IMG/VR virus record: IMGVR_UViG_3300020583_000224
Coordinates: 58,713-122,712 of that record
Length of the DNA: 64,000 bases
DNA from: a virus
Direction: 5' to 3' (one strand)
Positions 2,559 through 46,045 of the stretch are shown one piece after another (position 1 is the first letter of the stretch; each line of letters begins with the position of its first letter). A program made the translations under genes and the position numbers. The notes beneath the pieces are model-generated. The model worked only from the letters and a program-made list of their open reading frames with translations. It searched no databases and was not told the DNA's origin.

Positions 2559-2761
2559 GCCTGCTCGCCGCCGATGTGGTCGAAGTCCATGCCGCGCATG
2601 CCCGCGCGGAAAGTCGCCCACTCGTCTCGGTCGAACGTGAGCACCGGTCCGTCCGGGTCCTTGCTGTCGCGGATCAGCACGAGCCCGCCGTGCTCGCCAA
2701 CCTCGACGCAAGTGGCATTGTTGGGGCACCTCGCGGCCTTGGCCCAGCGAATCTCACTCAT
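2555..2761 (-). CDS. DUF397 family protein (BldB/Scr2-like)
   Basis: W-x-K...CVEV...IRDSKDPDGPVLTF...EW..F signature. Confidence 0.9.
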   Translation of the reverse strand: MSEIRWAKAARCPNNATCVEVGEHGGLVLIRDSKDPDGPVLTFDRDEWATFRAGMRGMDFDHIGGEQA

Positions 2762-3530
2762 CGTCATCTTCCTGTCCGTTGGCTTCGCGTACCGCCCGGT
2801 GGGTAGCCCGCGGTACGTCAATCGCGGCGCAGTGCTTGAGCCGGAACTGTTCGGCAGTCTCCCAGTCGAGACCTTCGGCGTCCTGCCGTTTCGCGTCGAT
2901 CAACATGACGAGGGCGTCGCGGACCGCGTCCAACTGCACGGGACTGAGGCCGATCAAGTCGAACGTCGCCGGATTGTGGCGCGCATAGAGCACTCAACAC
3001 CTCCAGGTCTGGGTCAATGCTAGAGGTTCGGTACGGCGAGCAGACCTTTTCAGTTGGAAGGTGCCGCGAGCCTGAGGATCCCGGCGGCCGCCTGCTCGAT
3101 CTCGGCGGGAGTCGCGCCGGGCGCGGTGGTGATCTGCTCCATGGCGTCGAGGAACTGCCAGCGCGCGGTCAGTGCCCGGGTGAACGCGAGACTGTCGGCC
3201 ACCGGTTCGTCGCCCGCGTCGCGTGCCTCGTTGTTGACGCGGGCGATCTCGGCCAGGCCGCTGGCCAACTCGTCGAACCACGGCGGGTCCGTGGAATCAG
3301 TGGATCTCACGGGGCGTCCAGGGCGTTCCTGAGGTCCGCGGCGATCGTGCGCGGGTCGACGCCGGTCGTAGCGAAGCTCTCACGCCACACGTTGACCGCA
3401 GTCTCGAACAGCTCGGCGGAACCGGCCAGGCTGTACGCCTCGCGCCAGGTCGCGGCCGGAATGCCGGTCTCCTGGCTGAGGGCGCCCATCTGAATGTCGG
3501 TGACGGCCTCGGTGTTGCTGCGGGTCATGG

Positions 3531-34922: not shown

Positions 34923-37900
34923 GTGCCGCTGCCCGGCGACCTCAACAAGATCAGCGTCACGGCGACCTATCAGGACGCTGCGGGCAACCCGCTCGCCGGG
35001 ACCGTCACGTTCACCCCGTCGGCAGACCTCGCTGACTCGACCGGACGCGTCATCCTGCGTGCCGAGCCGATCCCCGCACAGGTCGTTGGCGGCGTCATGA
35101 GCCCGCCATCGCTCGCCTGCACGGATAACGCAAATATCGCCCCGACCGGGTGGACTTGGGCCGTCGTCGAGTACATCTCCGGCGCCAGCGCGAACGTCGC
35201 CACCCGCTCCTACTCGGTCCTGCTGCCGCACACTCTCGGTAGCACCGTGGATCTTTCGACGCTCTCCCCGGTCGTGCCGCAGCCCGGCGTCACCAACTAC
35301 CTGCTCGCGACGAACAACCTCAGCGACCTGTCGAATGCGGCGACCGCCCGCACAAACCTGGGCCTCGGCACCGCCGCGACATCTGCCGCGACGGCGTTCG
35401 CGCAGACCGCGAACAACCTCTCGGATCTGGCCTCGGCGTCCACGGCGCGCACGAACCTGGGGCTCGGGGGAGCGGCCACCGAGAACGTCGGAACCGGCGC
35501 GGGCACTGTCGCGGCCGGGAATGACAGTCGGATCACCGGGGCGCTGCAAACGACCGGCGGCACGATGTCCGGGCCGATCGCCATGGGCAGCAACAAGGTC
35601 ACCGGCTTGGCGAATGGCACCGCCGGGTCTGATGCGGCGGCGTTCGGGCAGATTCCCACCTCGGCCAGCGGCATCGGCGGCCTGCTCGCCGCGAACAACC
35701 TGAGCGACGTTGCGAACGTCACGACGGCGCGCGGGAACCTCTCGGCCGCCGCGTCCGGCTCGAACTCGGACATTACCGCGCTCACCGGTCTGACCACGGC
35801 GCTGCCTGTCTCCGAGGGTGGTACCGGGTCCACGACCGGCCCTGCGGCTCAGGTCGCGCTCGGCGGCGTGTCCTGGTTCAACGTCCAAGCCCCCGCCTAC
35901 GGGGCCAAGGGCGACGGCAACATGGTCGCCGACGCGGCGATGACCGCGACGAGCGCGACGCTCACCTCCGCGACCGCGAACTTCACCGCAGGGGATGTCG
36001 GCAAGCTGGTCCAGGTGCGCGGCGCCGGCGCCGCGGGCGCCGACCTGAACACGACGATCAGCGGGTTCACCAACTCGACGACCGTCACGCTCACGGTCGC
36101 CGCTGGAACCACCGTCAGCGCGGCCACGGCCGTGTACGCCACGGACTCCGCCGCAGCCTGCCAGTCCGCGTTCACCGCCGCGCAGGGCGTGTACTACGGC
36201 ACGACCTACGTGCCGCCGGGCATCTACATGTGGTCGACGTTCGTGTCGATCAGCAAATGCATGCGGATCATGGCGAACGGCGCGCTGATCATCACGACGA
36301 ACTCCGGCGCCCTGAACCTCACCAACACGTTCTTGAGCCCCACGCCCGGGGTGTTCGGGCGCGGCAACGGCCTGGTCATCGAGGGCCTGGAGCTCGACTG
36401 CACCGGCGGCCACAACATCTACAACGTCAACCTGAGCAACTTCAGTTGGCGCGACATGGTCCTCACGCAGCGCTCCTCGAACTTCAGCGCCGTCTGGCAC
36501 GACACGACCGGCACGAACTTCATCGGCGGCGACATCCGCAACGTCCTGACGTACGTGTACGGCTCGGCGCGCACTATCCAGGCCTGGCACCTCGTCTCCC
36601 ACGTCGGCGGCGGCCTCGCCCTGACGAAATGGACCAGGTGCCTGTTCCAGAACCAGGGCGCCGACACCGCGCAGTTCCTGCTGTGGACCGAGGCACGCGG
36701 CGGCACGAACTACACCAACGGGCTCGAGCTCGACAGCTGCGTGTTCACTTCCGCCACTGGCGGCGGCGCCGCGTTCTGGAGCGCGCAGGGCGTCGTGCTC
36801 GTCAACTGCCGGGTCGTCAACTCGAACAACACTGTCAACGGCAACTCGATCTACCGGGTCGGCACCAACACCGGCTCCGGCGTGTCCACGTACACCAGTC
36901 AGGGCGTCACGATCGTCGGCTGCGGCAGGGACCTGCCCGGTCCTGACGGCTCGACCACGTGGGACGTGCACCTCGACTCGACCGTCGACCAGGTCGTCAT
37001 CGAGGCCTACGAGTGCAGGTTCCGCAGCACGGACGCGGCGAAGACCCCGTTCTTCAACCTCAACTCGGCGACCCACGTGCTCGTGCTCGACTGCCCGACC
37101 GCGGTCATCACCAACCCGGGCAACGCCATCCAGATCCCGGTCACCGGCGACGGCAACACGCCCGGCACCGGCGACGGCGCGGTCAGCATCCCGTCGCTCA
37201 CCCTCGGCGCGGCGCTCCCGATCGGGTCCGGCGGCACCGGACAGGCCACCCCGCAGGCCGCGATCAACGCGCTCACGGGCACGCAGTCCGCAGGCAAATA
37301 CCTGCGTTCGGACGGCACCAACGCGAGCCTCGCTTCGATCCAGGCAGCCGACCTGCCCGCCGCGACCACCTCGGTTCAGGGCGCGGTCGTCATCGACGGC
37401 ACCGCCGCCGACATCGCCGCCCTCGGCACCCAAGCCGCAGGCGCCATCGGGAAGTCTGCGGACGCGGGCCACGTCCACCCCACCGCGGGCCTGGTCGACA
37501 CCGCCACCACGCAGAACGTCGGCGGCACGAAGACGTTCACCGGCGAAATCGTCGTTCCGACCCCGGTCAACGCCGGCGACGCCGTCACCAAGGCGTACGC
37601 GGACGCGATCTCCCTCGGCCTGTCCATCAAGGGGTCGGTGCAAGAAGCAACGGCCGCAGCGCTGCCCGCGAACACGTACAGCAACGGCGCCTCGGGCGTC
37701 GGGGCGACACTGACCGGCAACGCCACCGGGACGCTGACGGTCGACGGCGTGACGGTCGCACTCAACGACCGGGTCCTGGTGCAAAACGAGGCGACCGGCG
37801 CGAACAACGGCATCTACCTGTGCACCACGGCCGGGGCGACCGGAGTCGCCTACGTCCTGACCCGCGCCACCGACATGAACACCGCCGCGAAGATCCCCGG

Positions 37901-39056
37901 GGCGTTCACGTTCGTGGAGGCTGGCACCGTGAACTCGGGCGCCGGGTTCGTAGTGGCCTCCGCCGGGCCGTTCACGGTCGGCACGGCTGCGATCAGCTTC
38001 ACCCAGTTCTCCGGAGCCGGGGAGATCACGGCCGGGACCGGCCTGTCCAAGTCCGGCAACACGATCTCGCTCTTCACGCCGGTGGCCTCCGGCAATCTTC
38101 CGGGAGCGACCGCCAGCGCTCAGGGCGCCGTCATCCTTGACGGTACCGCGACGGACATCGCGCCCCTGGGGACCCAGGCCGCTGGTGCGGTCGGCAAAGC
38201 GGCCGACGCCGGGCACGTGCATCCCCTGTCCGCGACGGGCAACGTCCAGACCTTCACAGCGAACGGCACCTGGAATAAGCCAGCGACAGCGACGCAGGTC
38301 ACGGTGATCCTCATCGGCGCGGGTGGCGGCGGAGGATCCGGCGCGGTCGAGAACTCGGGCACGGTCGCCTCCGGCGGCGCCGGTGGCGGCGGCGGCGGTT
38401 ACACGATCAAATCGTTCCCGGCCGCGCTGCTCAGCTCCACCGAGACCGTCACCGTCAGCGCAACCGGCGGAACCGGCGGCGCCGCGGTCGGCACCGCCGC
38501 CTCGGCGGGCAACGCGGGCGGGGCTGGTGGCGCCACCAGCTTCAAGAGCACCTCATGGGCAGTCGCCAACGGCGGTGCGGGCGGCGGCGCAGGCACCACA
38601 GGCGCCGCCACCGGCGGAACCGGCGGCGTCGGGTCCATCAACGGCGGCACCGGCGCAAGCTCCAACGCGGCTGGCGGTGCAGGCGGCACCGGGTCCGGCT
38701 CCAACCAAGGCGGCTCCGGCGGCGGCGCGGGCGGCGGCATGGCCACCACCCCCGCCAACGTCGCAGGCGGCGCGGGCGGCTTGATTCAGTCCTCGTCCGG
38801 CAACCTGGGCGGCACCGCAGGCACATCAGGCGGCGGCTCGGGCGGCGCAGGCAACTCGGCCGGCGTCAACGCGCCCGTCGCAGGAACCGGCGGAGGCGGC
38901 GGAGGAACCCTCACCGCTGGAACCGGCGGCAGCGGCGGCCTAGGCGGCAACTACGGCGGAGGCGGTGGCGGCGGCGCAGGAGCCACCACGGGCCAGAGTT
39001 CGGGTGCAGGCGGAAACGGCGCAGGCGGACTCGCCGTCATCATCTCCCTGAATTAG
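34923..39056 (+). CDS. Large fibre/spike-like virion protein: NNLSD repeats, pectate-lyase-like beta-helix, Gly-rich C-terminus
   Basis: FNVQAPAYGAKGDG...DSAAACQSA...YVPPGIY; three NNLSD repeats; duplicated 43-aa QGAV..DG...DAGHVHP module. Confidence 0.75.
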   Translation: MPLPGDLNKISVTATYQDAAGNPLAGTVTFTPSADLADSTGRVILRAEPIPAQVVGGVMSPPSLACTDNANIAPTGWTWAVVEYISGASANVATRSYSVLLPHTLGSTVDLSTLSPVVPQPGVTNYLLATNNLSDLSNAATARTNLGLGTAATSAATAFAQTANNLSDLASASTARTNLGLGGAATENVGTGAGTVAAGNDSRITGALQTTGGTMSGPIAMGSNKVTGLANGTAGSDAAAFGQIPTSASGIGGLLAANNLSDVANVTTARGNLSAAASGSNSDITALTGLTTALPVSEGGTGSTTGPAAQVALGGVSWFNVQAPAYGAKGDGNMVADAAMTATSATLTSATANFTAGDVGKLVQVRGAGAAGADLNTTISGFTNSTTVTLTVAAGTTVSAATAVYATDSAAACQSAFTAAQGVYYGTTYVPPGIYMWSTFVSISKCMRIMANGALIITTNSGALNLTNTFLSPTPGVFGRGNGLVIEGLELDCTGGHNIYNVNLSNFSWRDMVLTQRSSNFSAVWHDTTGTNFIGGDIRNVLTYVYGSARTIQAWHLVSHVGGGLALTKWTRCLFQNQGADTAQFLLWTEARGGTNYTNGLELDSCVFTSATGGGAAFWSAQGVVLVNCRVVNSNNTVNGNSIYRVGTNTGSGVSTYTSQGVTIVGCGRDLPGPDGSTTWDVHLDSTVDQVVIEAYECRFRSTDAAKTPFFNLNSATHVLVLDCPTAVITNPGNAIQIPVTGDGNTPGTGDGAVSIPSLTLGAALPIGSGGTGQATPQAAINALTGTQSAGKYLRSDGTNASLASIQAADLPAATTSVQGAVVIDGTAADIAALGTQAAGAIGKSADAGHVHPTAGLVDTATTQNVGGTKTFTGEIVVPTPVNAGDAVTKAYADAISLGLSIKGSVQEATAAALPANTYSNGASGVGATLTGNATGTLTVDGVTVALNDRVLVQNEATGANNGIYLCTTAGATGVAYVLTRATDMNTAAKIPGAFTFVEAGTVNSGAGFVVASAGPFTVGTAAISFTQFSGAGEITAGTGLSKSGNTISLFTPVASGNLPGATASAQGAVILDGTATDIAPLGTQAAGAVGKAADAGHVHPLSATGNVQTFTANGTWNKPATATQVTVILIGAGGGGGSGAVENSGTVASGGAGGGGGGYTIKSFPAALLSSTETVTVSATGGTGGAAVGTAASAGNAGGAGGATSFKSTSWAVANGGAGGGAGTTGAATGGTGGVGSINGGTGASSNAAGGAGGTGSGSNQGGSGGGAGGGMATTPANVAGGAGGLIQSSSGNLGGTAGTSGGGSGGAGNSAGVNAPVAGTGGGGGGTLTAGTGGSGGLGGNYGGGGGGGAGATTGQSSGAGGNGAGGLAVIISLN

Positions 39057-39450: not shown

Positions 39451-40182
39451 GTGATCGAGCGGGCACTGAAGGACGACACCCCCTGCGCCGCCACGTGGCC
39501 CATCACCGGGAAACCGTGCAGGCACCTGCCCATGCCCGGCCTCGACGTGTGCGAAGCCCATCATCCCGACGGCGACCAGCGCGTCCCCCCGCCGTCCGAA
39601 ACAGTCCGGTGCACCGGCACCAACCGGGAATCCGGGGAACGCTGCCGGCGGCCACACCGGCCCGGCGGGAAAGTCTGCAATAAGCACGGCGGCAACGCCC
39701 GTGCCCCCCGCGAAGCCGCCGACCGGCGCGTGGCGATCAAGAAGGCGAGGGAGCGGATGGAAACCTACGGCGCACCCGTCAAAATCGCTCCCGAGCACGC
39801 GCTCCTCGCAGAGATCCACCGCACCGCCGGACACGTCGCCTGGCTCGAACAGCAGGTGCACGCGCTTACCGAGGGCGAGCTCGTGTGGGGCATCACCCGC
39901 GTCAAGGAAGGCGGCGAGGACCGGGGTATCACCGAAGAGGCGGTGCCGCACGCGCTCCTGAAGCTGTACCAGGAAGAACGCGCCCACCTCGTGAAAGCCT
40001 GCGCCGCAGCGCTCCGCGCGGGCATCGAGGAGCGGCAGGTCAAGCTCGCGGAGTCCCAGGGGGCCCTTGTTGCCCAGACGATCCGGGCGATCCTCGGCGA
40101 CCTGAACCTGAACGCGACACAGAAGGCGCTCATCCCCATCATCGTCCCGCAGCGCCTGCGCGAACTCGCGCTCACCAACTGA
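39451..40182 (+). CDS. terS: Terminase small subunit (HGG Zn-motif type)
   Basis: C..C..VCNKHGG; ALLAEIHRTAGHVAWL; immediately upstream of terL. Confidence 0.7.
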   Translation: MIERALKDDTPCAATWPITGKPCRHLPMPGLDVCEAHHPDGDQRVPPPSETVRCTGTNRESGERCRRPHRPGGKVCNKHGGNARAPREAADRRVAIKKARERMETYGAPVKIAPEHALLAEIHRTAGHVAWLEQQVHALTEGELVWGITRVKEGGEDRGITEEAVPHALLKLYQEERAHLVKACAAALRAGIEERQVKLAESQGALVAQTIRAILGDLNLNATQKALIPIIVPQRLRELALTN

Positions 40183-40195
40183 ACCAGAGGGCGGG

Positions 40196-42805
40196 ATGAC
40201 CGCCACCGTGGAGTGGGTCGAATACGCCGCCCGCGCGTTCGAAGTCGTCAGGCCCCCGGCGTGGCGCGACATCGCAAGACCCGAGCAGCTCGCACCCGAG
40301 GGCGACTGGCTCGTCTGGGCGTATATCGCCGGGCGAGGTTGTGTCGCAGGCGATACTCGAATCTACCTGCCGCTTGAGGATCGGCACGAGCGGATCGACA
40401 TCCTAGCCTCAGCGGGCCGCGCAATCACGGTCCTCGCCCTGGCATCCAGTGGACCGCGTCCGGTCGCCACGGACGGCGCCCCATTCGTCAAGGGCGTCGC
40501 GCCGCTGTACGAGGTGACGACGTCCGACGGGCACGTCATCACCGCGACGGATCGGCATCGGTTCCTTGGTCCGCAAGGATGGCTGCGACTCGCTGACGTG
40601 CGCGCCGGACAGCTTCTTGCCGCAGGAGCTCCCGTTGCACAGCAGGCAGCTTCTTGCGGCCAGTCAACGTCGCCCGCAGGTGGTCCGCGTTCGACGGGAA
40701 CACCCGCAGGTTCGCCGGATCGTTGTCCGACGTGTCTCCGTTGCGATGGTCAACGACCTCTCCCGGGAGCAGCATTCGGCCTAGTTCGCGTTCCATCACC
40801 AAGCGGTGCATCCGCACGTACCCCTTCACTGCTTGAGGGTGGTCCGGCTGGTGCTGCAGGATGTAGCCCTGCTCATCTACCGCATAGCCTCCGCGCCAGA
40901 ACGGGTTCCGCTCCGGCCGGGCTTTCGCAGGAAGACGATCTAGTCCAAGCTCGACCAGTCGATCCCGGACCGTCTCGTCGTTACAGCCCAGCGCTGCAGC
41001 CATCTCCCGGCACGACATGCCCTGCGCATGAAGGTCGCGGAGATCGCCCTCGGGGATTTGAAGACGCCTGGCTTTCGACTGCTTTGCCCGCTGCTGCGGA
41101 GTCTTCTCGCGGCCTCGAAGCTGGACGCCAGCCCGCTCAAGACGCCGCTGCACGGTCTGGTGCGACACTCCAGCGTCTTTGGCTATGCCCTTCGCCGACT
41201 CGCCAGCCTCATAGCGAGCCCGCATCTCCTCGGCGGTCAACTGCGCCAGAAACTCCTGGCGCAGCGTCACGCCGGCTTCTCGCAGTCGCCGGGCAACCGT
41301 TTGCGGTGTGGTCTGGTACTCGATCGCGATCGACCGCATCGGCTGGCCAGCCAGATACTGAGCTAGCGCCTCAGGCGGCAACGAAATCTTTGGCATGTTT
41401 GGATTGTATCGCCTGGACGCGGGTTGTGACGGTACGACCTGTAGGAACGGGCGTCTTCTACGACCTCACGGTTCCCGGTGCGGAGAACTACGCAGCCGAG
41501 GGAATGTGGCACCACAACAGCGGAAAGACGCGCTCCGCCGCCGAATGGGTCCACGAGAAGGCCACGCTCAACCCGGGCGCCCGCATTGCCCTCGTCGGCC
41601 GCACTCCGGCTGACGTCCGCGATGTCATGATCGAGGGCGAGTCGGGGATTCTTGCCTGCGCGGGCGAGGATCGCCCCATCTATGAGTCGACCAAGCGGAA
41701 GCTGACGTGGGCCAACGGGTCCACTGCGCACGCCTACTCTGCCGAAGTCCCCGACCAGCTCCGAGGCCCGCAGCACGGGTTTGCGTGGTGCGATGAGCCT
41801 GCCGCCTGGACGGATGCCCGCAAGGGCGACGTGCTCGACACGGCGTGGAACAACCTGCTGCTCGGCCTGCGTCTCGGGGCGAACCCGCAGTGCGTGGCCA
41901 CCACGACCCCGAAGCCCAACGCGCTGATCCGCACCCTGCTCGGCCGCGCCTCCACCGTCGTCAGCCGCGGCTCGACCTACGACAACCTCGCCAACCTCGC
42001 GCCCTCCTTCCGCGAGCACGTGCTCGCCACCTATGAGGGCACCAGGATCGGCCGCCAGGAGCTCCTCGGCGAACTGCTCGAGGACGTCGAAGGCGCCCTG
42101 TGGACGCTCGACCGGATCGACGCTGGCCGAGTCGCGGTCGCGCCCGACATGGTGCGCGTCGTCGTAGCCGTAGACCCGTCCGGCGGATCCGGGCCCAACA
42201 ACGACGAGCAGGGCATCGTCGTCGCTGGCCTCGGCGTTGACGGCGCCCTGTACGTGCTCGCGGACCGGTCGTGCAAGCTGTCCCCGCACGGCTGGGCGTC
42301 GAGGGCGATTGCGGCTTACCGCGAGTTCGCGGCCGACCGTATCGTGGCTGAGCGCAACTTCGGCGGCGAGATGGTCGAGTCGACGATCCTCCAGGTCGAC
42401 AAACTCGTGCCCGTCAAGGTGATCACCGCATCGCGGGGCAAGGTGCAGCGCGCCGAGCCGATCGCCGCGCTCTACGAGCACACGCCCGCCCGCGTCCACC
42501 ATGTTGGGGCGCTGCCTCAACTCGAGGACCAGCTCACCACCTGGACCCCGCAGGACGGCACGAGCCCCGACAAACTCGATGCGATGGTGTGGGCCTTGAC
42601 CGAGTTGACGGATGGCCTCGGCGCGGACGCGTGGATCGAGTACATGAAGCGCCGCGCCGAAGAGGTGGGCATGCAGCCGCGCGAGCGGGCGCCAGAGGTC
42701 CTCGAACCGCCCGAGCCGCGGCGCGATCCCGAACCTGAACCGGATGACCCGGTAGCCCGCCTGCGTGCCGCCCGTACTGCCGCACTCCGCGCCCAACGCA
42801 GATAA
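40196..42805 (+). CDS. terL: Terminase large subunit precursor (869 aa; 476 aa after intein splicing)
   Basis: Spliced Walker A AGRG|SGKT; LRGPQH..AWCDE Walker B; TTTP; VAVDP; ERNFGG; SPDKLDAMVWA nuclease motifs. Confidence 0.95.
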   Translation: MTATVEWVEYAARAFEVVRPPAWRDIARPEQLAPEGDWLVWAYIAGRGCVAGDTRIYLPLEDRHERIDILASAGRAITVLALASSGPRPVATDGAPFVKGVAPLYEVTTSDGHVITATDRHRFLGPQGWLRLADVRAGQLLAAGAPVAQQAASCGQSTSPAGGPRSTGTPAGSPDRCPTCLRCDGQRPLPGAAFGLVRVPSPSGASARTPSLLEGGPAGAAGCSPAHLPHSLRARTGSAPAGLSQEDDLVQARPVDPGPSRRYSPALQPSPGTTCPAHEGRGDRPRGFEDAWLSTALPAAAESSRGLEAGRQPAQDAAARSGATLQRLWLCPSPTRQPHSEPASPRRSTAPETPGAASRRLLAVAGQPFAVWSGTRSRSTASAGQPDTELAPQAATKSLACLDCIAWTRVVTVRPVGTGVFYDLTVPGAENYAAEGMWHHNSGKTRSAAEWVHEKATLNPGARIALVGRTPADVRDVMIEGESGILACAGEDRPIYESTKRKLTWANGSTAHAYSAEVPDQLRGPQHGFAWCDEPAAWTDARKGDVLDTAWNNLLLGLRLGANPQCVATTTPKPNALIRTLLGRASTVVSRGSTYDNLANLAPSFREHVLATYEGTRIGRQELLGELLEDVEGALWTLDRIDAGRVAVAPDMVRVVVAVDPSGGSGPNNDEQGIVVAGLGVDGALYVLADRSCKLSPHGWASRAIAAYREFAADRIVAERNFGGEMVESTILQVDKLVPVKVITASRGKVQRAEPIAALYEHTPARVHHVGALPQLEDQLTTWTPQDGTSPDKLDAMVWALTELTDGLGADAWIEYMKRRAEEVGMQPRERAPEVLEPPEPRRDPEPEPDDPVARLRAARTAALRAQRR
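40539..41396 (-). CDS. HNH homing-endonuclease-like protein (3 HTH repeats + NPFWRGG + HNH) nested antisense within the intein
   Basis: YVRMHRLVMERELGRML..GEVVDHRNGDTSDNDPANLRVF; three HTH repeats. Confidence 0.9.
   Translation of the reverse strand: MPKISLPPEALAQYLAGQPMRSIAIEYQTTPQTVARRLREAGVTLRQEFLAQLTAEEMRARYEAGESAKGIAKDAGVSHQTVQRRLERAGVQLRGREKTPQQRAKQSKARRLQIPEGDLRDLHAQGMSCREMAAALGCNDETVRDRLVELGLDRLPAKARPERNPFWRGGYAVDEQGYILQHQPDHPQAVKGYVRMHRLVMERELGRMLLPGEVVDHRNGDTSDNDPANLRVFPSNADHLRATLTGRKKLPAVQRELLRQEAVRRARQRVAAILADQGTDADPSR
41403..41430 (-). promoter_or_regulatory. Leaderless-type promoter of the antisense HNH gene
   Basis: Minus strand GTCACA-16 nt-TACAAT-6 nt-ATG. Confidence 0.6.
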
Positions 42806-42817
42806 AGGGGGCCCGGC

Positions 42818-45800
42818 GTGCCCGATGTGATCACCGCTGCGGCCACGCCCAACACTCCCCGGATTCGGGTGCGTGAGCGCATCGGCGGCGGGTTCATGCG
42901 CCTCGCAAAGGTATTCGGCACCGCAGTCCCCGCGGACATTGCCGCAGCCGAGACCGCCGCCGGCATGGACTCGTCCACCCCGTTCTCCCCGGGCGCGCCC
43001 CTCTCGCCCTACGACGGATACTCGCGCACCCCGCGCAGCCAGAACTTCGTCCCCCAAGTCAACGTCACCACCCGGCCGCGCACCCACGAACGCGTCTCGT
43101 TCGAAACCCTCAAGGGCCTGATCGACGCCTACGACATCGCCACCATGGCGATCTGGCACCGCATCGACTCGCTGCGCTCCCTCGACTGGTCGCTCGTCGC
43201 GGCCGACGGATTCGAGGGCGACGTGGCCGACGCGGTCGCGATCGGCATGTCCGTGCTCGCCAAGCCCGACGGGCAAACCCCGTTCGGGGCGTGGCTCGCC
43301 GAATGGGTGTACGACATCCTCGCGTTCGACGCCGGCACCCTGTGGCGGATGCGGAACCGGGCCGGGCAGGTCGTCGGGCTGCGCGTGGTTGACGGCAGCC
43401 TGATCGCGCCGCTGCTCGACGACTGGGGCAACACGCCCCAGGCCCCGGCCCCGGCGTTCGTGCAATACATCAACGGCTTGCCGTGGAACTGGCTGACCAC
43501 GAACGACCTGATCTACAGGCCGTTCCGCAAGCGTCCCGACTCCCCGTACGGGCGGCCGCCGCTCGAGTCGATCCTGCTCAATGCGAACACCGACCTGCGG
43601 TTCCAGGCGTACTTCCTGCAGCGGTTCACCGAAGGCAACCTGCCCGCCGCGTTCGCCAGCGCCCCGGACTCGTGGACCCCGCAGCAGATCGAGCAGTTCC
43701 AGGAGTACTGGGACGGGTTCATCCTCGGCGACCAGTCGTTCAAGTCGCAGATCCGGTGGATCCCCCCCGGCTCGAAGATCGAGTGGAGCAACGAGAAAGA
43801 CTTCACCGACGCGTTCTCGCTGTTCATGATGCGCAAGACGCTCGCCGCATACCACGTGGTGCCGTCCGACATGGGCATCACCGACACCGTCAACAAGTCA
43901 ACCGGTGAAACCCAGCGCGACGTCCAGCACCGCATCGGCGACGTGCCCCTCGCCCGGCACGTCTCCGACATCCTCACCGCGTTCCTCCAAGACGACCTGC
44001 ACCTGCCCGTCAAGCACCAGTTCGACTTCGGCGAGGAACAAGACGACCGGCTCCAGTTGGCGCAAGCCGACGACATCTACATCAAGAACGGCACCGTCTC
44101 CAACTCCGACATCCGGGAACTGCGGTTCGGCCTCTCGGAGCCCGAAGGCAAGCGGGTCCCGCGGTTCGTCTACTCCAACCGCGGCGGACCCATCCCACTG
44201 TCTGCGCTCGAAGCCGTGGCGGGGCCGATCGACTTCGAATCCGGCGCCCCGCAGCCTGGCGCGCCGCTGCCGCACACCGTGTTCCAGCCCGTCGAAGGCG
44301 TCGAAGGCAACCCGCCGACCCCGCGTCCGCCGCTCGCGGTCGAGCAGTACGGTCCGGGCGCGCTGCCCGTCGCGGCACCGCAGTCCGTGCCCGCGCTGCC
44401 GGTTGCACCCGTGCAGGCCGAATTGAAGGCGGCCCCGGTCGCGAAGGACGGGCCTACTGCGGGAATCACGGCAGCGACCGGGATCACGTCCTACGACCTC
44501 GTCGGACGCCACGACGACGAAGACGACGACGAGGACGAGGCTGTCGCCAAGGAACTCGCCGCATACCGGCGTTTCGCCAAGGCCCGGCGCCGCGACGGCA
44601 GATGGCGCGACTTCCAGTTCCAGGCCGTAGACGCCGCCACCGCGCGCAGCCTCAACGAGGCCGGCCACCAGTCCGTGCTCGCCAAGCAGTCCGGCATCCC
44701 GGGACTGACCAAGCGCTCCGGCATGATCTCGCTCGACCTGCCCGCAGGCCTCGTGCCGACCGTACCGGGCGGCGTGAACGACCACCATGTGACCGTCGTG
44801 TACCTCGGTCCGGACGTGGCGAATGAAGAGTTCGACACCGCCTGCGACCGCGCCGAAGCCGCGGCAGCAGCCTGCCCCGGACCGCTCACCGGCACCATCG
44901 CAGGGATCGACACGTTCCCGCCGTCCAGCGGCAGCGATGGCAAGATTCCCGCGTTTGTGCCCGTCACGCTGCCCGGCGTCGAGCAGGTACGCGCGTCGCT
45001 CGAAGACCTCTCAGCGAGTGAGCACACCGACTACCACCCGCACGTGACGCTCGCATACCTCGACGAAGGCGACCCGCTGCCGGACCCCGTGCCGCCGACG
45101 CTCGTCACCTTCACCCACCTTACTGTGCACCGCGGCGACGAGACCCGCAGCTTCCCGCTCGGGCCGCGCATGCTCGGCCTGGCGAAGGCCGCGGCGGGAA
45201 GTGAACCGGGCCCAAAAGCTGACGCCTCCGCCAAGGAGGCGTCCAGCCACTGGCCCGGATGGGACTACGACGAGACCGCCGCAGACCACTGGGCACGGAA
45301 ACTCGCCGACGGCTACGTTGCCGCGTTGAGCGTCGCCCGGGCGCAGCGGATCGCGGCCAGCTTCCTCGCCGCGCACCCCGGCGACGGCGAGAAGCACACC
45401 AAGGCCGAAACCGCCGCGATCGCCGCAGCGCTACTCGCAGCGGCCCTCGCGCACCTCGAGGACCAAAACCTCGACCTCACCAGCGCCGCCACCGCAACAC
45501 TCCAAGGCCTCTACACCGACGCCTACCTGATCGGCGCCGCCAGCGGCAACGCAGTCATCGACGGCGGCAAGCCCGTGCTCACAGGCTGGTCGCCAGGCAA
45601 GACCGACGAAGCGCACGGGCTCATCGAGGCGCTCGCGCTCGGCACCGGCCTGTCCGCGCTGCTGCGGCGCGCGCCCGAAACCGCGGCGGCCATGTCCAGC
45701 ACGCGCATGGCCGTGCTCGCCAGCGCGCTCGCGGCAGGCGCGGCAGCCGGACAATCAGCCGCGATCATCGCAGGGTCGCTCATCGCAGTACTCAAGGCGG

Positions 45801-46045
45801 GGTGGCGGTCGCTGACCGCTGCCATCACCGAAGTCACCAGCGCATCCAGCGCAGGCGCGAGCGACGCCTACCAGAAGCGCGGCATCACCCTCTACGAGTG
45901 GGCCCTCGACCCCAGCGTCAACAACTGTCCGATCTGCATAACGAACGCCAACTCGGCGCCCCGAAAGTTCGGGCAGAAATGGCCCAGCGGCCAGGCCGCC
46001 CCGCCAATCCACGGCCGCTGCCGCTGCGCGCTCGTCCCGGCCTAG
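42818..46045 (+). CDS. Portal protein fused to a 2H phosphoesterase and a MuF/gpF-like C-terminus
   Basis: Portal motifs (DILAFDAG, SPYGRPPLE, FTEGNLP); two HVT motifs (44786, 45041); terminal W....CPIC....PPIHGRCRC. Confidence 0.88.
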   Translation: MPDVITAAATPNTPRIRVRERIGGGFMRLAKVFGTAVPADIAAAETAAGMDSSTPFSPGAPLSPYDGYSRTPRSQNFVPQVNVTTRPRTHERVSFETLKGLIDAYDIATMAIWHRIDSLRSLDWSLVAADGFEGDVADAVAIGMSVLAKPDGQTPFGAWLAEWVYDILAFDAGTLWRMRNRAGQVVGLRVVDGSLIAPLLDDWGNTPQAPAPAFVQYINGLPWNWLTTNDLIYRPFRKRPDSPYGRPPLESILLNANTDLRFQAYFLQRFTEGNLPAAFASAPDSWTPQQIEQFQEYWDGFILGDQSFKSQIRWIPPGSKIEWSNEKDFTDAFSLFMMRKTLAAYHVVPSDMGITDTVNKSTGETQRDVQHRIGDVPLARHVSDILTAFLQDDLHLPVKHQFDFGEEQDDRLQLAQADDIYIKNGTVSNSDIRELRFGLSEPEGKRVPRFVYSNRGGPIPLSALEAVAGPIDFESGAPQPGAPLPHTVFQPVEGVEGNPPTPRPPLAVEQYGPGALPVAAPQSVPALPVAPVQAELKAAPVAKDGPTAGITAATGITSYDLVGRHDDEDDDEDEAVAKELAAYRRFAKARRRDGRWRDFQFQAVDAATARSLNEAGHQSVLAKQSGIPGLTKRSGMISLDLPAGLVPTVPGGVNDHHVTVVYLGPDVANEEFDTACDRAEAAAAACPGPLTGTIAGIDTFPPSSGSDGKIPAFVPVTLPGVEQVRASLEDLSASEHTDYHPHVTLAYLDEGDPLPDPVPPTLVTFTHLTVHRGDETRSFPLGPRMLGLAKAAAGSEPGPKADASAKEASSHWPGWDYDETAADHWARKLADGYVAALSVARAQRIAASFLAAHPGDGEKHTKAETAAIAAALLAAALAHLEDQNLDLTSAATATLQGLYTDAYLIGAASGNAVIDGGKPVLTGWSPGKTDEAHGLIEALALGTGLSALLRRAPETAAAMSSTRMAVLASALAAGAAAGQSAAIIAGSLIAVLKAGWRSLTAAITEVTSASSAGASDAYQKRGITLYEWALDPSVNNCPICITNANSAPRKFGQKWPSGQAAPPIHGRCRCALVPA

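Follow-up and report, generated by a model that had tools for sequence, protein, structure and literature searches.

A terminase intein with a predicted HNH homing endonuclease gene on its antisense strand in an IMG/VR virus and related phages

The terL intein and the gene opposite it

The gene for the large terminase subunit (TerL) in the IMG/VR virus record IMGVR_UViG_3300020583_000224 is interrupted within its Walker A codons by an intein, and the strand opposite the middle of this intein carries a separate gene for a protein with helix-turn-helix (HTH) repeats and an HNH nuclease domain. The analysis covered a window of 64,000 nt, a part of the 122.7-kb record, and all positions given below are those of this window. 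The layout noted in the original prediction was confirmed in all its elements at the coordinates given there. The best explanation, and in our judgement a very probable one, is that intein and antisense gene make up a two-gene selfish element in the Walker A codons of terL, in which the HNH protein is the homing endonuclease (HEN).

The TerL precursor is encoded by a single open reading frame (ORF) of 869 aa (40196..42805, + strand) consisting of N-extein, intein and C-extein. It matched the Pfam families Terminase_6N (1.6e-16), Terminase_6C (2.8e-12) and Intein_splicing (2.7e-10) and the terminase large subunit families of PHROGs. The Intein_splicing match on TerL residues 102-441 corresponded to profile positions 48-155, indicating a large insertion in the middle, and the intein segment by itself (40340..41518, +; 393 aa) matched the family at 3.3e-11. 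The N-extein (48 aa; 40196..40339, +) ends with the residues WAYIAGRG, the first half of Walker A, as is evident from the translation and from the intein-free TerL P0122 described below, and the C-extein begins with the +1 Ser and the remainder of the motif, SGKT (41519..41530, +). Since the insert sits between ...IAGRG and SGKT..., the Walker A loop is split, as proposed in the original prediction for this DNA. An N-terminal Cys nucleophile, a block B TxxH (T70 and H73, coded at 40547-40558), the C-terminal His392-Asn393 and the +1 Ser characterise the insert as a class-1 intein. When 16 inteins were aligned, C1, T6, T70, H73, D375, V378, Y384, G388, H392 and N393 were invariant and the middle part differed in both length and sequence. 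The model PF14890 gave one match in the 122.7-kb record and thus no second intein in this virus.

The AlphaFold2 (AF2) model of the intein consists of two confidently predicted lobes and a long linker. Block-mean pLDDT (predicted local distance difference test) values were 77-97 for the N-terminal splicing lobe (residues 1-100; 40340..40639, +), which contains beta strands and is conserved in the 16-intein alignment, and 70-97 for residues 351-393, with 80-97 for about 355-393. The C-terminal splicing lobe (residues 353-393; 41396..41518, +) contains blocks F and G with the conserved ...VFYDLTVPG.ENY.AEG..HN. The linker between them (252 aa, residues 101-352; 40640..41395, +), here called the 'shadow' linker because it is the sense reading of the antisense HNH gene, had block means of 34-48 and was without secondary structure up to residue 348. 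The model superimposed on the NpuDnaB mini-intein 4o1r with a Z-score of 21.2 and a root-mean-square deviation of 1.8 A over 135 aligned residues, and all 31 chains that reached Z≥8 were inteins or other Hint-fold domains. The sense insert had been described as rich in Pro, Ala, Arg and Ser and devoid of motifs; its composition (16.7% A, 13.5% P, 11.9% S, 10.7% G and 9.9% R) and the lack of a Pfam match agree with that description. A recognisable folded domain in the sense insert was also considered and was rejected on the grounds of the low pLDDT and the missing Pfam match. As modelled, the element is a mini-intein carrying a predicted disordered linker of about 250 residues, with a complete HINT fold around the linker. 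The intein looks intact and functional, and its intact motifs together with its occurrence in cultured, viable phages argue for protein splicing.

The antisense gene (40539..41396, −) is free-standing, starts with ATG and encodes 285 aa with three HTH repeats and an HNH_3 domain, in agreement with the original prediction on the counts of ORF call, Pfam, PHROGs and AF2. Profile scans of both strands placed Intein_splicing on the + strand and HNH_3 on the − strand. The HNH_3 match covered residues 195-236 (1.5e-11; 44.2 bits against a cut-off of 24.8 bits), HTH_58 and HTH_38 matched at 2.9e-12 and 1.2e-11, and the PHROGs family phrog_7545, annotated as 'HNH endonuclease', at 7.9e-26. No LAGLIDADG or Vsr model was found among the 25 families listed of the 35 Pfam families matched at E≤0.1, which were HNH_3 and HTH only. 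The AF2 model had a mean pLDDT of 81.5. Its helices at residues 8-40, 55-88 and 116-150 form three tri-helical HTH DNA-binding units (residues 8-150; 40947..41375, −), and a profile match to the tandem-HTH protein 2lvs (E 1.9e-6) likewise identifies a separate DNA-binding module. The HNH (beta-beta-alpha-Me) catalytic core (residues 170-245; 40662..40889, −) reached block-mean pLDDT values of 91-96 over residues 171-240 and displayed a beta-beta-alpha core. H217, N225, N229, N236 and H239 were invariant in 25 sequences. A profile search of the PDB with the HNH alignment matched only HTH proteins.

Homologues of the HNH protein are numerous. Among 8000 candidates scored, 205 were found at E≤1e-3, and an exhaustive search returned 26,428 representative clusters at the same threshold. 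The best 150 of these had lengths of 138-496 aa throughout, which excludes an in-frame fusion into a large host protein for any of them. Judged from its sequence, the ORF appears to encode a real and separate protein.

Selection and expression signals on the two strands

The HNH gene ends with a stop codon at 40539-41, and its last codons lie opposite intein block B, so the proposed overlap of its 3′ end with that block (40547-40558) is present. The GC content across the TerL/HNH region is about 65%, and long antisense ORFs are not rare there. Over the HNH ORF, the TerL frame contained 0 sense stops, as compared to 3 and 8 in the remaining + frames. When the synonymous codons of the HNH gene were shuffled 5000 times with its protein and its codon usage preserved, the sense frame acquired a mean of 4.97 stops (P(0)=0.0016), and the claim that the sense frame is open beyond chance was thereby upheld. 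The same applied to the homologues, in which stops in the sense frame would have spoken for another reading: 62/62 distinct HNH regions, obtained from 80 related loci after removal of duplicates and including loci of 44-51% GC, had 0 stops in the same antisense phase, with a shuffle mean of 3.96. As a control, gp41 of Streptomyces phage Cursive, a free-standing relative, had 14 stops in that phase. The antisense HNH gene of Pectobacterium phage Ymer (50% GC) had 0, as opposed to 11 and 11 in the other antisense frames. An ORF opened by chance through high GC is ruled out by the shuffles, the 62/62 open regions and the counts in Cursive and Ymer. The open sense frame appears to be maintained by selection.

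The phase of the overlap places HNH codon positions 1, 2 and 3 opposite sense positions 1, 3 and 2, and allows selection on the two frames to be told apart. The codon-position analysis was made on the window and 8 close relatives (9 sequences); the locus L005, in which the HNH ORF runs off the end, was left out. Within the HNH core (residues 100-258; 5713 codon pairs) the differences at HNH positions 1/2/3 were 0.313/0.271/0.591. This is the normal protein-coding pattern, by which the HNH core appears to be under purifying selection. HNH position 3 is sense position 2, and as this is the most variable position, the sense frame seems to be without amino-acid constraint in the core. In the last 24 codons (HNH residues 262-285), which lie opposite the end of the intein N-lobe, the pattern flipped to 0.096/0.375/0.21, so that the intein frame dominates there. 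The HNH C-terminus 'R.RVAAILA' was invariant or nearly so in 25 homologues, which we attribute to this dominance of the intein frame. A stretch of dual constraint can be delimited from the codon-position pattern where the HNH C-terminal helix (residues 252-285; 40542..40643, −) faces the end of the intein N-lobe, block B included. Selection assessed for each strand, as the original prediction had suggested, hence shows the HNH frame dominating the core and the intein frame dominating the HNH tail. Loss of the HNH ORF among relatives, which would have told against the prediction, was not observed: full-length intact ORFs were found in all loci examined.

Signals for separate expression of the HNH gene were detected on its own strand. 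The only sigma-70-like site detected in 40100-41800 (1 found, 0.1 expected from shuffles) is on the − strand. It consists of GTCACA, a 16-nt spacer and TACAAT at 41430-41403 (41403..41430, −) and falls within the codons of the intein C-lobe. With its −10 hexamer ending 6 nt ahead of the ATG at 41396, the site predicts a leaderless mRNA. TAnnnT was present at exactly −12 in 9/9 members of the close clade, again without L005 for the reason given above. The base opposite the second position of the −10 is a third position in the sense frame and was T in 9/9 sequences, although the sense codon at this place encodes 7 different amino acids across the 9 sequences and the frequency of T in third positions of these host genes is 0.09-0.22. 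Conservation of this T despite the different amino acids and the low T frequency points to selection on the antisense signal and not on the intein protein. In more distant loci, a GGAG-type motif resembling a Shine-Dalgarno (SD) sequence was found 5-17 nt before the first in-frame start in 17/42, relative to 86/830 control windows. These findings support a HNH gene with expression signals of its own, a predicted promoter in the close clade and an SD in the more distant relatives.

Related loci, mobility and alternative readings

A scan of IMG/VR with the HNH alignment gave 179 confirmed matches, the best 80 of which were examined as loci. The same antisense phase was open across the HNH match in 80/80 loci, a host ORF of at least 400 aa was present in 79/80, and in 75/80 the HNH was followed by a host-strand junction in which HN precedes S/T/C, G/A and K/L, that is, an intein end inside Walker A. 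The hosts were mostly TerL; one was an AAA_24 ATPase (L016) and three were other proteins (L011, L021 and L039). Only one of the 80 loci (L027:3947-4492, +) was without a surrounding intein or P-loop host ORF. Its phase-0 antisense frame was open over the whole gene (220 aa), and it may represent a cassette that has only recently come out of an intein.

A tblastn search with the HNH of the window gave matches in cultured Pectobacterium and Dickeya phages. In Pectobacterium phage Ymer (OP748252.2), TerL with its intein is represented by a 754-aa 'hypothetical protein' encoded between a terminase gene and the portal gene, and the antisense HNH ORF (232 aa; L082:2453-3151, +) is unannotated. Six sibling Pectobacterium phages and one Dickeya phage gave the same match as Ymer. 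The TerL-plus-intein is labelled 'hypothetical protein' in the cultured Pectobacterium phages, and the record of Dickeya phage Setonix is without annotation. The public gene call for the DNA of the window itself, P0121 (41427-42805; 459 aa, MTVRPVG...), starts inside the intein; TerL is truncated in this call because the gene caller presumably called the HNH on the other strand.

Two other inteins were noted in the same group of terminases. A close TerL relative (L098:1290-3677, +; 76% C-extein identity) has an intact P-loop and a different intein near its C-terminus (...DRLDA / CIAAG...VHN / CVWA...). That intein reads S/T/P/A-rich in frame and holds a 206-aa HNH_3 ORF (5.8e-08; 2753-3373, +) on the same strand in another frame, an out-of-frame and not an antisense arrangement. 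P0171 (723 aa), a TerL of the same clade, has its intein at a third site (...FAWC / FPAGT...VHN / CDEPAAW), which follows the Walker B-like FAWCDE region; the middle of this intein is also S/T/P/A-rich and may hide a nuclease in an alternative frame.

The distribution of the element is patchy. The closest TerL proteins were sought in a set of 5.8 billion proteins, and intein-free alleles were found at 93%, 87% and 86% extein identity. P0122 (474 aa), 93% identical to the C-extein, reads AGRGAGKT across the unbroken junction ...WAYVAGRGAGKT; P0123 and P0124 also read AGRGAGKT, and the intein-free P0135 reads AGRGSGKT. All of the nearest 80 TerL loci in IMG/VR (47-79% identity) had an uninterrupted AGRG-xGKT and gave no HNH or intein match. 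Identity between the locus L002 and the window was 79% for the intein N-lobe, 72% for the C-lobe and 58% for the HNH, but only 36% for the C-extein. Such a mismatch between cassette and extein and the occurrence in hosts other than TerL are as homing predicts, and the patchy distribution, read from the sequences, fits homing.

The life of the element may be depicted as follows. On the + strand, the terL frame would be translated through a contiguous class-1 intein whose lobes are joined by some 250 disordered residues that are a mere reverse-strand reading of the HNH gene. The translated intein would fold and splice itself and the shadow linker out, restoring AGRG-SGKT and leaving a working terminase of about 476 aa. 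The − strand would give a separate 285-aa protein with three HTH units and a HNH_3 nuclease, transcribed in the actinophage-like clade, probably without a leader, from a promoter of its own among the codons of the intein C-lobe, and preceded in more distant relatives by an SD sequence. During co-infection the HNH would introduce a nick or a cut into an intein-free terL, at the Walker A codons or close to them, and repair would copy the whole intein-plus-HNH cassette into the intein-free allele. Selection would keep the HNH protein intact and use its synonymous sites to hold the sense frame free of stops.

The composite selfish element originally proposed is thus largely retained: the open + frame, the selection on the HNH, the expression signals and the HINT fold all fit it. 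The anatomy, conservation, frame-wise selection and fold of the element and its patchy distribution were established in this analysis. Several points weigh on the other side. Splicing, the antisense transcript, the HNH protein, cleavage and homing are inferred. Foldseek with the whole HNH model, which is elongated and multi-domain, gave no match in the PDB at E≤0.001, and the intron endonuclease I-HmuI (1u3e) was found only at rank 14 (E 0.2, 24% identity over 102 columns); because these structural matches are weak, it is the sequence profiles on which the assignment as a nuclease is based. As to the promoter, its −35 element is weak, and the sequences in which the −10 is conserved are related and not independent. 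Contigs of three metatranscriptome runs (X3, X4 and X5) matched 40870-41289, 41226-41469 and 41155-41391 and three other pieces at ≥99%, but they are unstranded and possibly DNA carry-over and were not used for or against expression. The 80 loci are the best of 179 matches to an alignment built from intein-resident HNH proteins, so that 80/80 describes the loci most similar to such a query and would be biased if taken as a census of HNH_3 genes at large. The patchy distribution also fits repeated precise loss.

A more elaborate version of the element, to which we assign a small but real probability, combines a single invasion, Walker A targeting and inverse expression of terL and HNH. Intein and antisense HTH-HNH would here be an ancient element from one invasion, as the phase fixed in 80/80 loci and the tail overprinting block B could suggest. 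The Walker A codons would be targeted generally, which would let the element jump from one P-loop ATPase to an unrelated one, TerL and AAA_24 being examples. The antisense leaderless promoter would tie the nuclease inversely to terL through convergent transcription or antisense RNA, and the nuclease would be made early, with naive co-infecting genomes present, and silenced late when TerL is needed.

We regard it as quite unlikely that the HNH is a terminase accessory nuclease of the cos-phage type, or is domesticated for another phage function, instead of serving homing. HNH genes beside terminase genes are common in phages (PMC3592412), and here the gene lies even inside terL. The cassette follows the intein, however, and not TerL, with the same phase and junction in the AAA_24 ATPase (L016) and other non-TerL hosts, and it is absent from the nearest 80 TerL relatives and from the 93%-identical alleles. 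In its tandem HTH and HNH_3 make-up and in the PHROG families that it matches, the protein agrees with HNH endonucleases of the homing type from phages, and the free-standing relative in phage Cursive sits between a ribonucleotide reductase gene and an endolysin gene. The linkage is to a mobile insert rather than to terminase function.

That the HNH ORF is a decaying, unexpressed relic within a vertically inherited mini-intein with a junk linker is still less probable. Such a relic would account for a sense linker that is disordered and free of constraint, and would agree with RNA contigs that carry no strand information and with the indirect evidence for HNH expression. The codon-position pattern of the HNH core is nevertheless that of purifying selection (0.59 at position 3 vs 0.31 and 0.27), the catalytic residues are invariant in the 25 sequences, ORFs are intact and full-length at every locus inspected, and the promoter or SD signals are conserved. 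Intein and HNH are also more alike between loci than the exteins, and the nearest exteins are without the element.

Production of TerL as two polypeptides joined by trans-splicing, as in 'fractured genes' with split inteins, of which one terminase has been described (Dassa et al. 2009, PMC2677866) and for which the gene caller's split of this TerL at P0121 could be taken, is hardly credible, since in a split layout an open sense frame would not be selected for, yet such a frame is present in 80/80 loci and in 62/62 regions in place of about 4 expected stops, also at 44-50% GC as in Ymer (0 stops vs 11 and 11), and the host gene is not in two ORFs but in a single one of 869 aa.

Two neighbouring regions of the window are described here for completeness. 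The ORF that follows terL (1075 aa; 42818-46045, +) encodes a fusion of a portal protein (Phage_portal, residues 144-435) with a domain of the 2′-5′ RNA ligase superfamily (residues 657-764, 1.1e-06) and with a long extension at the C-terminus. An ORF of 1377 aa (34923-39056, +), located upstream of the packaging genes, ends with a long Gly/Ala/Ser-rich tract and had no Pfam match at E≤0.001. This region has 75-79% GC and several long, spurious-looking overlapping ORFs.

Relation to known systems and significance

An antisense gene in an intein, for which the original prediction named no precedent of the same kind, is not new, as antisense HENs in inteins have been in print since Gorbalenya 1998. 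The Gosselin 2025 preprint credits Gorbalenya 1998 and Gogarten 2002 with antisense LAGLIDADG ORFs in the inteins of Synechocystis DnaX and of a Chloroflexus SpoVR-like protein, and the Phillips 2026 preprint also cites the antisense LAGLIDADG of Gorbalenya 1998. The argument from frame-specific selection used here is likewise put forward in a 2026 preprint on the dnaX intein. Gosselin, Arsenault and Gogarten (Gosselin et al. 2025, bioRxiv 10.1101/2025.01.02.630785) describe actinophage minor-capsid inteins with antisense LAGLIDADG, and also actinophage inteins, many of which are located in TerL, with an antisense VSR-like (EDxHD) or an out-of-frame EndoVII-like HEN.

The antisense-LAGLIDADG inteins share with the present element a contiguous intein, an uninterrupted sense frame and an endonuclease ORF on the opposite strand between the splicing blocks. 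Also in these the in-frame reading is without recognisable fold and the unit still appears horizontally mobile. The present element differs from them in its HTH and HNH_3 nuclease, in the TerL Walker A site and in the very large family in environmental phages (as seen in the best 80 of 179 IMG/VR matches). The VSR-like and EndoVII-like inteins of the Gosselin preprint have in common with it the TerL host, the same phage group, a HEN in a separate frame and the proposed origin from a free-standing HEN invading an intein, and differ in the nuclease family. The layout is therefore that of the antisense-HEN inteins, and as the nuclease is neither LAGLIDADG nor VSR-like (EDxHD), the element is a variant of this class and not a member of the sub-types described.

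Three other systems resemble it in part. The ShiLan insertion in phage DNA methylases hides an out-of-frame HNH (Arsenault et al. 2025, PMC11855218) and, like the element here, has a HNH_3-type endonuclease in an alternative frame of an insertion that is open in the host frame. Residues 156-233 of the window's HNH matched ShiLan methylase insertions by tblastn with 47-49% identity. In ShiLan, the HNH lies on the same strand and no splicing domain could be found, whereas the HNH here is antisense and the intein complete. Fractured genes, in which a GIY-YIG or Vsr-like nuclease lies between the halves of a split intein (Dassa et al. 2009, PMC2677866), likewise have a free-standing HEN gene between N- and C-terminal intein parts, which is thought to be the route by which inteins gain new nucleases; their host gene is broken into two ORFs, in contrast to the continuous host ORF here. 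The I-HmuI-type HNH (PDB 1u3e) also combines a beta-beta-alpha-Me core with modular helical DNA-binding units and is phage-borne, but it is intron-encoded and its structural match here was the weak one given above.

HNH occurs only as an in-frame HEN in the main text of the Gosselin survey, whose supplementary tables may list an antisense case. No published description of an antisense HNH gene within an intein was found, a provisional result since older subscription papers and supplements were outside the search. The principle has already been published for other nucleases, and what is new here is only the type of nuclease (HTH and HNH_3) and the size of the family.

In this element, both strands are read over about 850 nt, and both would be under protein-level constraint over about 100 nt of that length. 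The intein would be a natural case of tolerance towards a disordered insert of some 250 residues. A large family of terminases and nucleases is mis-annotated because gene callers call only one strand. The arrangement supports the model of intein evolution in which the splicing domain came first and a free-standing nuclease invaded later and, since cultured carriers exist, provides a system in which it can be tested.

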